Source: Shigella phage vB_1081. Taken from it: a stretch of DNA of 5,529 nt. Made by a program: the position numbers and the translations under genes. The notes below the pieces were generated by a model. The model was not told where the DNA came from, searched no databases, and worked only from the letters and a program-made list of their open reading frames with translations. Positions 1-5,529 of this stretch are shown in pieces. Location: the sequence record PV477269; one strand, 5' to 3'. Position 1 is the stretch's first letter; the number at the start of each line of letters is the position of its first letter.

Positions 1-3
1 TGC

Positions 4-33
4 TTGACTAATACTCAATCGCCACTCTAATAT
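4..33 (+). promoter_or_regulatory. Candidate promoter PA in the H-A intergenic region
   Basis: -35 TTGACT at 4-9 (5/6), 18-bp spacer, -10 TAATAT at 28-33 (4/6). The predicted transcript start lies just upstream of GGAGG (48-52) and ATG 59. The upstream context is cut by the window edge, as the genome is circular. Confidence 0.45.
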
Positions 34-58
34 GCCTCCCATCAAACGGAGGCTTTTC

Positions 59-1723
59 ATGTTTAAAACTCATTCTGACTACTTTAACAAACCAAACATC
101 GACGCAATCAAACCACTCGTCGAAACTGCTGGTATGTCTGTTCTTACTCAGTCTCCAAACCTCCGCATCTGGAAACAGTGCAATACTCGTATCAAACTTC
201 TTGAAGAAATCCTTGCTCATTACACGAATGGTATCCGCCGTGATGATAATGGTGACTTCTGGATGAATCCAAACTCTCAACTTGCAACCACTATTGCCTA
301 TCGTGCCCACCAAAAAGGCCACAATCCTAAATTCAAACAATACCCAGAGTCGTTTACTCTGGATGACATTATTACTGGCAAACCAATCCCTCAAACCGCT
401 CCTGACGAATTACAACTCTCTGATGAAATCGGTGAAGACTACCGTCTTACAGTCCTCTCCATAATCGAAGAACTGCAGGAATGTTACGATGTGCTCGGAC
501 AACTTGATATTAATAACACTATAGACCACAAACCCCTCGGTAATACTCACTGGGACTTACTCTATGAAAAACCCGTATACAAACATTGGACTCAACTCGT
601 TTCAAAACGACCCCTTAAAGATATCCGCGCCGATTACAACTATGCAAAGGCGAAGGGTATTAAGGATGAATGCTCAAAAATCTTGGAGGAATCTACTATG
701 AAGTCCCGTCGTGGATTTACCGTCCAAAGATTGATGAATGCTATGCGTACAGCCCATACTCAGGGCTGGTATGTGGTATTCGACACTCTTACTCTAGCCG
801 ATGACCGCTTAAAGGATTTCTATGATAATCCCAATGCTCTTCGTGACTACTTCCGTGGTATTGGTCGTATGGTTCTTACTGCCGAGGGTCGTTCGGTGCA
901 TGAGTCATCTGCCGACTGCTATCAGTATTTTTGTGTGCCAGAGTATGGTACACAGCACGGTCGTCTACATTTCCACGCAGTGCATCTTATGCGCACACTT
1001 CCTTTGGGTTCTCTGGACCCTAACTTCGGTAAGCTGGTACGCACTAATCGGCAAATAAATAGCTTGCAAAACACGTGGCCTTATGGTTACTCTATGCCCA
1101 TCGCAGTCCGGTACTCCCAAGATGCCTTTTCTCGTGCTGGTTGGCTCTGGCCTGTGGATACAAAGGGTGAACCCCTTAAAGCTACCTCGTATATGGCTGT
1201 AGGCTTCTATGTTGCTAAATACGTTAATAAAAAATCAGATATTGACATGGCCGCAAAAGGCCTAGGGAATAAAGAATGGAACAATTCGCTCAAAACCAAA
1301 ATCAACCTCATACCCAAGAAGGTGTTCAGAATCCGAATGTCCCGCAACTTCGGAATGAAACTGCTCTCAATGGCTTACCTGTCAGCGGAAACCCTGATGG
1401 AACTGACCCAAGTGGGTTACGACGTGACCCCGTTCAACAACATCTTGAAGCAGAACGCCAAGAAAGAGCTCAGATTGAGGCTGGCAAAGAAATCTGTCGC
1501 CGACGTTTTGGAGGCGCAACCTGTGACGACCAATCTGCTAAAATTCATGCGCAATTTGACCCGAACAATCGGAGCGTCCAGCCTACAGAGTTTTATCGCT
1601 TCAATGACCACGAAATTATCAAGTACGGATATTTCTGATGAAACCAAAACTTACGTTGCTGATGCAGGAATTGCTGTTGCTAACTTACGAATTAAATCGA
1701 AGTGGACTGCTGGTGGAAAATGA
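59..1723 (+). CDS. A: Replication initiation protein A (rolling-circle HUH endonuclease); 554 aa from ATG 59
   Basis: ORF 32..1723 translates to a protein closely matching my recollection of phiX174/G4 gpA across most of its length. It contains the HUH motif ([14 protein letters not shown] codons 968-976) and the twin catalytic-tyrosine motif [10 protein letters not shown] (Tyr codons 1208-1210 and 1220-1222). The start is placed at ATG 59 because GGAGG at 48-52 sits 6 nt upstream and the resulting 554 aa equals the length I recall for G4 A; ATG 32 has no Shine-Dalgarno and overlaps a putative -10 box. Confidence 0.93.
500..529 (+). other. Origin of viral (+) strand rolling-circle replication (gpA recognition and nick site), inside gene A
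   Basis: Exact 30-nt sequence CAACTTGATATTAATAACACTATAGACCAC, identical to the conserved phiX174-family origin as I recall it. gpA nicks between the G and A of CAACTTG/ATATT, here between positions 506 and 507. Confidence 0.9.
698..1723 (+). CDS. A*: A* protein, in-frame internal restart of A (341 aa)
   Basis: In-frame ATG at 698-700 opening MKSRRGF, the same residue context as the phiX174 A* start. It is preceded by GGAGG at 685-689 (8-nt spacer). The 341-aa product equals the phiX174 A* length. Expression is inferred by homology only. Confidence 0.7.
1064..1093 (+). promoter_or_regulatory. Weak candidate for promoter PB inside gene A (upstream of B)
   Basis: TTGCAA at 1064-1069, 18-bp spacer, TACTCT at 1088-1093 (only 3/6 to the -10 consensus). 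It lies about 185 nt upstream of the B start, roughly where phiX174 PB maps. Sequence support is poor; listed only as a place to look. Confidence 0.2.
1276..1638 (+). CDS. B: Internal scaffolding protein B (120 aa), encoded in an alternative frame entirely within gene A
   Basis: The ORF translation (MEQFAQNQ...[10 protein letters not shown]...EFYRF...YGYF) matches recalled phiX174/G4 gpB, including the conserved C-terminal FGYF-type motif. It lies in a different frame from A, and its TGA stop (1636-1638) overlaps the K start in the sequence TGATG. Confidence 0.92.
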
Positions 1724-2551: not shown

Positions 2552-3835
2552 ATGTCTAACGTTCAAACTTCTGCGGACCGCGTACCTCATGACTTATCTC
2601 ATCTCGTTTTTGAAGCTGGTAAAATCGGCCGCCTCAAAACTATCTCTTGGACACCTGTTGTTGCTGGTGACTCTTTCGAGTGTGATATGGTTGGTGCTAT
2701 TCGTCTGTCCCCTCTTCGTCGCGGCCTCGCTGTTGACTCACGTGTTGATATCTTTTCTTTCTACATCCCACACCGTCATATCTATGGTCAGCAGTGGATT
2801 AACTTTATGAAGGATGGCGTTAATGCCACCCCTCTCGCTCCTGTTACTTGTTCATCTGGCTGGGACTCTGCTGCGTATCTCGGTACTATTCCGTCCTCTA
2901 CGCTCAAAGTGCCTAAATTCTTACATCAAGGCTATCTGAATATTTATAACAACTACTTTAAGCCGCCTTGGTCTGACGACTTAACTTATGCTAACCCGTC
3001 CAATATGCCTGAACAGGATTACAAATGGGGCGTGCGTGTCGCTAACCTTAAATCTATCTGGACCGCACCACTGCCACCGGATACCCGTACATCTGAAAAC
3101 ATGACTACTGGTACATCCACTATTGACATTATGGGCCTACAGGCCGCATATGCTAAATTACACACGGAACAGGAACGTGATTATTTCATGACCCGTTATC
3201 GTGACATTATGAAAGAGTTCGGCGGACACACCTCTTATGATGGTGATAATCGCCCTCTTCTGCTTATGCGCTCTGAGTTCTGGGCTTCTGGCTATGACGT
3301 AGACGGTACTGACCAATCCTCACTCGGTCAATTCTCTGGTCGTGTTCAGCAGACCTTTAATCATAAAGTGCCACGCTTCTATGTCCCTGAACATGGCGTA
3401 ATCATGACTTTGGCTGTTACTCGTTTCCCGCCTACTCATGAGATGGAAATGCACTACCTTGTAGGCAAGGAAAACTTAACCTATACCGATATTGCTTGTG
3501 ACCCTGCGTTGATGGCTAACCTGCCTCCTCGTGAAGTGTCCTTGAAGGAGTTCTTCCACTCCTCGCCTGATTCTGCTAAATTCAAAATCGCAGAAGGCCA
3601 ATGGTATCGCACACAGCCTGACCGTGTTGCATTCCCTTATAACGCTCTGGACGGATTCCCGTTCTACTCTGCTCTCCCGTCCATGGAACTAAAAGACCGT
3701 GTACTGGTTAACACTGATAACTATGATGAAATCTTCCAGTCTATGCAGCTTGCACACTGGAACATGCAAACTAAATTTAACATTAATGTCTACCGTCACA
3801 TGCCTACGACTCGTGATTCAATCATGACCTCGTAA
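2552..3835 (+). CDS. F: Major capsid protein F (427 aa)
   Basis: Translation MSNVQTSADRVPHDLSHL...GRLKTIS.TPVVAGDSFE...LRLSPLRRGLA.DS.VDIF.FY.PHRH.YG.QWI.FMKDGVNATPL matches recalled phiX174 gpF (also 427 aa). AAGGA at 2540-2544 lies 7 nt upstream of ATG 2552. Confidence 0.96.
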   Translation: MSNVQTSADRVPHDLSHLVFEAGKIGRLKTISWTPVVAGDSFECDMVGAIRLSPLRRGLAVDSRVDIFSFYIPHRHIYGQQWINFMKDGVNATPLAPVTCSSGWDSAAYLGTIPSSTLKVPKFLHQGYLNIYNNYFKPPWSDDLTYANPSNMPEQDYKWGVRVANLKSIWTAPLPPDTRTSENMTTGTSTIDIMGLQAAYAKLHTEQERDYFMTRYRDIMKEFGGHTSYDGDNRPLLLMRSEFWASGYDVDGTDQSSLGQFSGRVQQTFNHKVPRFYVPEHGVIMTLAVTRFPPTHEMEMHYLVGKENLTYTDIACDPALMANLPPREVSLKEFFHSSPDSAKFKIAEGQWYRTQPDRVAFPYNALDGFPFYSALPSMELKDRVLVNTDNYDEIFQSMQLAHWNMQTKFNINVYRHMPTTRDSIMTS

Positions 3836-3846
3836 GGCAACAAAGG

Positions 3847-3887
3847 CCGCCCCTCTACTGGTCAGATGCCTGCCCAATGTGGGGCGG
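3847..3887 (+). other. Second stem-loop in the F-G intergenic region (possible auxiliary origin hairpin)
   Basis: CCGCCCC (3847-3853) is the perfect reverse complement of GGGGCGG (3881-3887), giving a 7-bp GC stem around a 27-nt loop. Position is consistent with the multi-hairpin G4 origin structure; function inferred. Confidence 0.4.
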
Positions 3888-3923
3888 ACCGTGCCTACGG
3901 AGATACCCGAATCTACGATACAT

Positions 3924-3949
3924 GGACGGCGTAGCCGCCGTCCCTACTG
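3924..3949 (+). other. Candidate complementary (-) strand origin: GC hairpin plus adjacent CTG primase initiation motif (G4-type, DnaG-dependent)
   Basis: 8-bp GC-rich stem GGACGGCG (3924-3931) / CGCCGTCC (3936-3943) with loop TAGC, followed immediately by CCCTACTG with CTG at 3947-3949. A primer copied from T3948 would begin pppAGUAGGGACGG..., which matches my recollection of the G4 primer. It lies in the 136-nt F-G intergenic region, where the G4 complementary-strand origin is located. Confidence 0.6.
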
Positions 3950-3971
3950 CAAAGCCAAAAAGGACTAACAT

Positions 3972-4505
3972 ATGTTCCAGAAATTCATTTCTAAGCACAA
4001 TGCTCCAATTAGCTCTACTCAGGTTACTGTTACTAAAACTCCGGCTGCCACGGCACCTGTTTTAGATGTGCCTGGCTTAAGCCGTTCTACTATTCAAATC
4101 AATGTAACAACCACAGCCGTTACAACTCATTCAGGCTTGTGCCACGTTGTTCGCATTGATGAAACAAACCCAACAAATCATCATGCTCTATCTGTTGCAG
4201 GTTCATTGTCGCATGTCTCTGCTGATATGATTGCTTTTGCTATTCGCTTTGAAGTCGCCGACGGCGTTGTTCCTACTGCCGTTCCGGCTTTATATGACGT
4301 TTATCCTATTGAAATTGTCAATACTGGCAAAGCAATCTCATTTAAAGACGTTGTGACTATTGATTCACATCCCCGCACTGTCGGTAACGACGTTTATGCG
4401 GGCATTATGCTCTGGTCTAATGCTTGGTCTGCCACTACTACCTCTGGCGTTCTCTCTGTTAATCAGGTAAACCGTGAGGCTACTGTTCTCCAGCCTTTAA
4501 AATAA
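3972..4505 (+). CDS. G: Major spike protein G (177 aa)
   Basis: Translation [10 protein letters not shown]...TAPVL...YDVYP...VTID..PRT.GN.VY.G.M.WSN...LQPLK matches conserved blocks of recalled phiX174 gpG. The 177-aa length matches what I recall for G4 G. AAGGA at 3960-3964 lies 7 nt upstream of the ATG. Confidence 0.93.
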
Positions 4506-4515
4506 GGATTATCCT

Positions 4516-5529
4516 ATGCTTGGTTCTGTCGTTGGTGGTATCGCCTCCGCTCTTGCCGGAGGTCTTACAGGTAAATTATTTGGCGGCGGTCAGTCCGCCA
4601 ATTCCACCGGAGTGCAAGGTGATATTCTTGCCTCTGACAACAATGTTATTGGTGCTAATGATGCTGGTATTAAATCTGCTATTCAGGGTTCTAGCCTCCC
4701 TAACTTTAAAGAGGCTGCCCCCTCTGCTATCTCTGGGATTCTTGCCGATTCTGGCAAGCATGCGCTCTCGTCTCTTACCAATGCTGGTACAAATAAACTC
4801 ATGGAAGCTGTCGGCCTTTCTAAGTCTGCCTCTGATAAGGGCAAGGATACAAAAGACTATCTTGCCGCCGCATTCCCCGAACTCAACGCATGGGAGCGCG
4901 CAGGTGCTGGTGCTTCTGGTGCAGGCATGCAAGATGCTGGCTTCCAAAATCAGAAAGAGCTAACCAAGATGCAGCTTGACAATCAAAAGGAAATCGCTAA
5001 GATGCAGAACGAAACTCAGAAGGAAATCGCTGGGCTTCAATCTATCACTTCACGCGAAAATACTAAGGACGCTGTCTATGCTCAAAATGAAATGCTCGCG
5101 TATAACCAAAAAGAGAGTATGTCACGCGTTGGCGCTATTCTCGAAAACACAAGCCTCACCAAACAACAACAAACTTCTGAAATTATGCGGCAGATGCTTA
5201 CTCAGGCTCAGACCACGGGTCAGCATTTTACAAATGAGCAAATCAAGGAGCTTACGCGAAAAGTTGGTGCTGATATTGATGCTGTTCGTGCTAACACTGA
5301 ACGCACCCATGTAGAAACTGACCGCTCAAAACAGGAGGTTCAAAACTCCCGTTACGCTTCCTCGCAGTTAGGCAAAACCGCTAAGGACGTTTCCAATGCA
5401 ATTACTGATACAGCTAGTTCTATTGTTGATTATTTTCGTGGTGTTGATCAAAAAGTGGCAGACGTTTACAACAACTATTTCAAAGATGGCAAATCGAAAG
5501 GAATAGAATCCAATCACCGTTCCAAATAA
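4516..5529 (+). CDS. H: Minor spike / DNA pilot protein H (337 aa)
   Basis: Translation ..[10 protein letters not shown]...KLFGGGQ...[11 protein letters not shown]...[24 protein letters not shown]...[32 protein letters not shown]...[15 protein letters not shown]...[26 protein letters not shown] is near-identical in blocks to recalled phiX174 gpH. The 337-aa length matches my recollection of G4 H. AAGGA at 4504-4508 overlaps the G stop; the ORF ends with TAA at the window end. Confidence 0.95.
4951..5049 (+). repeat. H: Three tandem 33-nt (11-codon) coding repeats within gene H
   Basis: Consecutive units [11 protein letters not shown] / [11 protein letters not shown] / [11 protein letters not shown] at 4951-4983, 4984-5016 and 5017-5049. 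The 12-mer AAGGAAATCGCT recurs exactly at 4987-4998 and 5020-5031, and AAGATGCAG recurs at 4966-4974 and 4999-5007. Confidence 0.6.

Follow-up and report, generated by a model that had tools for sequence, protein, structure and literature searches.

Complementary-strand synthesis in phage G4 begins at an origin, G4oric, which contains three stem-loops and at which primase and SSB suffice for primer synthesis (PMC6783573). The G4 primer begins at the T of a 5'-CTG-3' located 3' of the stem-loops and reaches a length of up to 28 nt before Pol III extends it (PMC6783573). The DnaG primase of E. coli prefers d(CTG) and starts at the middle base (PMC2978363). The origins of alpha3, St-1 and phiK are described as dnaG-dependent by Sims et al. 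1979, as that work is cited in PMC13037366, and the same 2026 review defines a GCG(N)NAGC mini-hairpin consensus that is linked to the origins of G4, St-1 and alpha3. The locus considered here is the spacer between genes F and G of Shigella phage vB_1081. A sequence-only reading of this DNA had predicted that the spacer directs the G4 mode of negative-strand initiation, and this prediction is supported by homology to G4oric. The same reading ascribed initiation in G4 to DnaG primase alone, which is correct as to the primase-only route but leaves out SSB, which is also needed (PMC6783573).

The window, that is, the whole stretch of DNA that was analyzed (PV477269, 5529 nt), represents a whole microvirus genome in circularly permuted form. 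Judged by its sequence, phage vB_1081 is a G4-like microvirus of the genus Gequatrovirus. Its genome is collinear with those of ID52 (98.6% identity) and NC6 (98.2% identity, equal length), while ID11 is approximately 93% identical (pairwise divergence 7.3%) and G4 approximately 92% (8.0%). Gene coordinates in the window were transferred from the NC6 annotation (Table 1). On this map the F-G gap of 136 nt is longer than the other gaps without coding, namely H-A (58 nt), J-F (40 nt) and G-H (10 nt), which bears out the earlier statement that it is the largest in the genome. The location of the (+) strand origin within gene A fits the "separate origins" layout of G4. The 40 nt around the (+) origin are 87.5% identical to alpha3, and this is the sole other segment that exceeds the conservation of the complementary-strand origin. 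It was also observed that only 1 of 58 sites of the H-A spacer (window 1-58) is variable in 12 G4-like genomes, a degree of conservation far above that of the J-F spacer (32% of sites variable) and even that of the F-G origin (8.8%).

Table 1. Features of the window and of its F-G spacer (positions are those of the window)
Feature	Position	Strand	Description
Gene A	59-1723		
(+) strand origin 30-mer CAACTTGATATTAATAACACTATAGACCAC	500-529		inside gene A, as in G4
Gene B	1276-1638		
Gene K	1638-1808		
Gene C	1720-1974		
Gene D	1976-2434		
Gene E	2154-2465		
Gene J	2434-2511		
Gene F (coat)	2552-3835		
F-G spacer, proposed as the whole complementary-strand origin region (oric)	3836-3971	+	would act on the packaged + strand
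Stem-loop III	3845-3890	+	lower stem 3845-3853/3881-3890, bulged A3888
Second CTACTG copy	3855-3860	+	inside stem-loop III
Central block CCGTGCCTACGGAGATACCCG	3889-3909	+	between stem-loops III and II; mostly invariant in 27 spacers from two genera
Stem-loop II	3898-3917	+	CGGAGAT ACCCGA ATCTACG; 6/7 pairs, G3900·A3915 mismatch; in MFE
Predicted RNA primer 5'-pppAGUAGGGACGGCGGCUACGCCGUCCAU-3'	3922-3948	-	reverse complement of the template
Stem-loop I	3924-3943	+	8-bp GC-rich stem GGACGGCG/TAGC/CGCCGTCC; would template most of the primer
GCGTAGC, instance of the GCGNAGC "mini-hairpin" motif	3929-3935	+	tip of stem-loop I
Single-stranded 3' flank CTACTGCAAAGCC	3944-3956	+	presumed primase-binding region; conserved, judged by sequence comparison
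5'-CTG-3', predicted primase initiation trinucleotide	3947-3949	+	4 nt past the stem of stem-loop I
Gene G ribosome-binding site AAGGA and ATG	3960-3964, 3972-3974	+	in the 3' end of the spacer; read from the sequence
Gene G (spike)	3972-4505		start as annotated in NC6 and ID52
Gene H	4516-5529		

The F-G spacer of the window is 100% identical to that of ID52. Alignment to the F-G region of G4, where the spacer has the same position, gives 94.9% identity (135 nt), and all three predicted stem-loops and the CTG are kept. The spacer had been described as strongly structured, and folding of the region as ssDNA agrees with this description: the predicted free energy is -28.3 kcal/mol, compared to -17.3 +/- 2.8 for 200 dinucleotide shuffles (z = -3.9), none of which is as stable. 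The G4 spacer folds with z = -4.7 into the same three hairpins. The GC stem-loop that had been described, with 8 bp and a TAGC loop, has exactly the coordinates of stem-loop I. For the hairpin given as 7 bp at 3847-3887, the stem CCGCCCC (3847-3853)/GGGGCGG (3881-3887) is present, but the full extent of stem-loop III was missed. Within stem-loop III, inner pairs form between 3859-3861 and 3874-3876 and between 3863-3865 and 3870-3872, and the MFE and centroid folds of this element agree among the window, G4 and ID11. Stem-loop II was overlooked in the sequence-only reading; in ID11, NC2 and others all 7 bp of its stem are paired. The motif CCCTACTG, which had been placed immediately 3' of stem-loop I, lies at 3942-3949 and overlaps the last two bases of the stem, while the CTG near its end and the CTACTG within the left hairpin (stem-loop III) had both been located correctly.

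The conservation of the spacer was examined in an alignment of 27 natural spacers, comprising 12 G4-like F-G spacers (window included) and 15 others, which are the homologous blocks of alpha3-like phages plus two related contigs; WA5 and ID41 were added later, giving 29 natural origins, 14 of them G4-like. The trinucleotide CTG occurs 131 times on the + strand, and about three copies are expected per 136 nt. Consequently, a CTG by itself is uninformative and it is the context that decides. The CTG at the predicted start site is invariant in all 27 spacers across two genera, and the flank CTxCTGCxAAGCC in which it lies is invariant or nearly so. Among the 12 G4-like genomes, 8.8% of spacer sites are variable, whereas the J-F spacer reaches 32% and third codon positions 28-36%, and there is no variable site at all in 3933-3956. 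The F-G spacer is thus under strong purifying selection. Conservation also extends across genera, as the origin is 81% identical to that of alpha3 while long coding matches are 68-74% identical.

The hairpins themselves show evidence of selection for pairing. With the three-hairpin structure imposed on the alignment, 83% of cells are paired, compared to 32-48% in slid controls. For stem-loop I, all cells (100%) are paired over 23 distinct sequences, and there is one compensatory pair, which is C-G in the G4-like origins and A-T in the alpha3-like origins. The lower stem of stem-loop III contains two compensatory pairs, C-G to T-A (five distinct sequences) and G-C to A-T (two). Variation within the spacer is highest in stem-loop II, which accounts for 5 of the 12 variable sites; this hairpin is paired within the G4-like phages, with a C-G/T-A swap, and this pairing is not formed in the alpha3-like origins. 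RNAalifold, applied to the mixed alignment, offered an alternative pairing for stem-loop III and a long-range GGC/GCC interaction, both of which were set aside, as neither has the two-sided covariation that is seen in the classical lower stem. The second CTACTG reads CTCCCG, CTCTCG or CCCCCG in most alpha3-like origins. Given this lack of conservation, a role as a second start site is improbable.

The evidence in this genome consists of homology to G4oric, the fold, conservation, covariation and purifying selection. By analogy with G4oric, the F-G spacer would be a functional G4-type origin of complementary (minus) strand synthesis, with a probability of roughly 0.93. Which proteins are required, and where exactly the primer starts, would be as established by G4 biochemistry, and the importance of the individual hairpins is suggested by secondary sources together with conservation. 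A G4-type origin is a textbook element, already known and ordinary for G4-like phages, so that its presence in an ID52-like genome adds nothing new. What the result does indicate is that a sequence-only reading can tell the priming route of a microvirus, either primase only or through a PriA primosome.

The mechanism proposed for this origin follows that of G4. First, SSB would coat the circular + strand on cell entry, while stem-loops III, II and I would remain folded, leaving short SSB-free flanks. Next, DnaG primase would bind these flanks without PriA, DnaB, DnaC or RNA polymerase and recognize the CTG downstream of stem-loop I, and the RNA primer is predicted to start with pppA opposite T3948, the same start that the sequence-only reading had given. 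The primer would then be copied leftward through stem-loop I (AGUAGGGACGGCGGCUACGCCGUCCAU), to a length of up to approximately 27 nt. This length, given by analogy, assumes that the primer stops at the counterpart of the last position of the 28-nt G4 primer (PMC6783573). Finally, DNA polymerase III holoenzyme would extend the primer to yield the double-stranded replicative form.

An alternative is that the main function of the hairpins is exerted in RNA, as a terminator or attenuator, or as elements that stabilize the mRNA or tune translation between F and G. The same hairpins would indeed form in an F-G transcript, and the ribosome-binding site of G is only 17 nt downstream of stem-loop I. 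Nevertheless, consensus scans found neither a hairpin-plus-T-run terminator on either strand of the spacer, where stem-loop I is followed by CTACTGCAAAGCC with no T run, nor a promoter signature within the spacer, and Rfam covariance models gave no match up to E = 1 across the whole window. Furthermore, the alpha3-like block occupies the G-H gap instead, which uncouples its conservation from the expression of F and G, and there is no obvious RNA rationale for an invariant CTG with a single-stranded 3' flank. A mainly RNA-level function is therefore considered very unlikely, although the hairpins may have an additional, secondary RNA role. A linear consensus scan of 3600-4200 also found no sigma-70-like site of the kind sought for an Ff/M13-type, RNA-polymerase-dependent origin.

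It could also be supposed that the F-G spacer serves for primosome assembly in the manner of phiX174 (a PriA/n' site) and needs the full PriA-dependent primosome, as the phiX174 site occupies the same F-G position and one member of the genus, ID2, has a phiX-like F-G spacer. Local alignment argues strongly against this supposition: against shuffles, the window spacer scores z = -1.3 with the phiX174 spacer and z = 0.1 with that of ID2, whereas ID2 against phiX174, the positive control in the same test, scores z = 23. In addition, the window lacks the hairpin with a AAAAATTTTAATTTTT loop that is common to phiX174 and ID2. The contrast that the sequence-only reading had drawn with the phiX174-type site consequently holds, and a site of that type is exceedingly improbable here. 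The spacer of ID2 (Gequatrovirus talmos; NC_007817, 3830-3928) is 99 nt long and is a homologue of the phiX174 spacer, not of G4oric; it contains the AAAAATTTTAATTTTT-loop hairpin as well as GCGCAAGCGCG. Since the ID2 spacer is of the phiX type, two priming modules have been exchanged within one genus. It follows that genus membership cannot decide the priming mode, and that the assignment made in the sequence-only reading was not implied by taxonomy.

An unannotated small protein encoded across the spacer, which would explain a paired loop deletion and downstream insertion described below, has next to no chance of being correct: all three + frames are stop-free over most of the spacer and an ATG ORF at 3877-4065 (62 aa) spans both indel sites, but in each frame the substitutions seen among 14 isolates change the amino acid, this ORF carries a TGA in NC6, the alpha3-like spacers close these frames and vary in A-run length without compensation, and GC-rich hairpin sequence would be expected to lack stops in any case, and the hidden ORF was accordingly rejected as the source of the -1/+1 coupling. 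With regard to the neighboring genes, the G frame is stop-free from approximately 3828 to a TAA at 3966-3968, two codons ahead of the G ATG, and in ID12 and ID8 this TAA is CAA and the frame continues straight into G. The F frame is open for 32 codons beyond the F stop (3836-3934), and for 52 codons in G4. These open F and G frames are probably a by-product of the GC-rich hairpin sequence.

Returning to the spacer as a G4-type origin, the natural variants of stem-loop I offer some insight into which features of the hairpin are maintained. Six variants of the loop are found in the 29 natural origins, and all fit GCG(N)NAGC: GCGTAGC (window, ID52 and NC6), GCGAAGC (NC10 and NC19), GCGAAAGC (G4 and eight others), GCGTTAGC (alpha3, St-1, phiK and others), GCGTAAGC (ID62) and GCGCAAGC (NC35, NC3, ID32, WA13, WA45 and a dog-faeces virus). 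The changes are confined to the N positions of this consensus, and the nominally unpaired AGC is constant in all 29. By a rough estimate, the chance that at least five changes would all fall in two of five equally free loop positions is approximately 0.01. Hirao is said to have proposed that the form chosen for priming goes beyond the 8-bp hairpin and is an SSB-induced mini-hairpin. The restriction of loop variation to the free N positions fits this proposal, while the C-G/A-T covariation in the stem indicates that the full 8-bp stem-loop I is also under selection. The mini-hairpin review makes no mention of the short GCGTAGC form for G4, St-1 or alpha3 (PMC13037366).

The length of the spacer also appears to be maintained, as it is exactly 136 nt in all 14 G4-like isolates. 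In each of the five G4-like spacers whose loop is shorter by 1 nt, the A run located 24 nt further downstream contains an additional base, either A or T; in the window, the sites of this coupled -1/+1 indel are 3932 and 3957. The coupled indels occur in three lineages, and the nearest relatives are without both changes. In the alpha3-like origins the A run varies (3-6 A) with no such coupling. The coupling may reflect a spacing constraint, a Sanger compression artefact, or chance or recombination; a spacing constraint, if true, would lie in the complex of primase, SSB and origin. That the natural variants reveal selection on both the mini-hairpin form and spacing is a tentative suggestion, and is judged rather unlikely. 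Conservation of the mini-hairpin, the coupled indels, the differing origin slots and the episome copies described below could nonetheless guide a small mutational study of G4oric.

Searches for the origin were extended beyond the microviruses in the alignment. A 14-base pattern returned 120 loci in IMG/VR, almost all of them chance matches in unrelated contigs, and one of these (L083), in which a partial match of 24 nt lies outside any origin context, was likewise discarded. A stricter 24-nt pattern recovered from IMG/VR the known G4-like and alpha3-like genomes plus two contigs of alpha3 size (6143 nt; L150 and L156), and in a metagenome scan it recovered two further alpha3-like contigs and one unrelated match (L146). 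The 24-nt pattern had no match in 185,579 species genomes, and complete E. coli genomes contained no match to the origin. A blastn search of a plasmid collection, on the other hand, identified a homologue of the alpha3-type origin with an intact CTG flank in E. coli episomes.

The episome homologue is located at 1072-1207 of CP057337.1, on the minus strand, and is also present in CP057350, NZ_CP062859, NZ_CP062904 and CP057168. These episomes are 8-9.6 kb in size and non-mobilisable, and come from E. coli from livestock faeces. The parts of the origin retained in the homologue are CTCCTGCTAAGCC, the region of stem-loop III and the GAGATACCCG core, as well as the block that corresponds to 3889-3909 of the window, and the CTxCTGCxAAGCC flank is near-invariant in it as well. 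A rebuilt stem-loop I centres on AAGCGAAGCGCG, a 12-mer that is also found in the phiX174 spacer, and the mini-hairpin of the homologue is GCGAAGC. The homologue lies in an unannotated non-coding gap, in the orientation opposite to all annotated genes. The genes of the episomes include an AlpA-like HTH regulator, an Sf6-like small terminase and a resolvase, and the element resembles a phage satellite.

Several enterobacterial plasmids carry primase-only priming signals that are classed as "G4-type" (ssi). The episome origin homologue, which is alpha3-type with the CTG flank, is a candidate signal of this kind. The phiX174 site shares with the window its intergenic position and the job of starting the complementary strand, and the phiX174 spacer also contains the GCGAAGC mini-hairpin motif, but there is no sequence similarity and the hairpin architecture is different. 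The phiX174 site needs a multi-protein PriA primosome rather than primase and SSB.

The origins of alpha3, St-1 and phiK (Alphatrevirus) contain a homologous sequence of approximately 135 nt, with 79-82% identity to the spacer of the window. Features common to both are the CTG flank, the central GAGATACCCG block and two of the stem-loops (I and III). In contrast to the window, where the origin lies between F and G, the alpha3-like block is located between G and H, directly after the G stop codon. The alpha3-like F-G gap is only approximately 37 nt, and the origin is in the G-H slot in all alpha3-like genomes compared, indicating that the module has been retained while its genomic slot differs. 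The alpha3-like stem-loop I has an A-T pair in place of C-G and a loop that reads GCGTTAGC, GCGCAAGC or GCGTAAGC, and a G4-style stem-loop II is not formed.

The likeness to G4oric itself is close, and the spacer of the window differs from it at 7 positions. One substitution is located just past the F stop, one is in the apical loop of stem-loop III, and three are in stem-loop II, where the closing pair is A-T in the window (G·T in G4) and a G·A mismatch is present. Besides these two pairs, the substitutions number two in loops and one in a flank. Additionally, the loop of stem-loop I is one base shorter in the window (TAGC, within GCGTAGC) than in G4 (AAAGC, within GCGAAAGC), and the A run of the window is longer by one A (3957). 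None of these differences falls in the stems of stem-loops I and III, in the CTG, or in the flank 3' of the CTG. The window and G4 thus agree in the F-G position, the length of 136 nt, the three predicted stem-loops and the CTG with the flank on its 3' side, and both have their (+) origin separately, in gene A.
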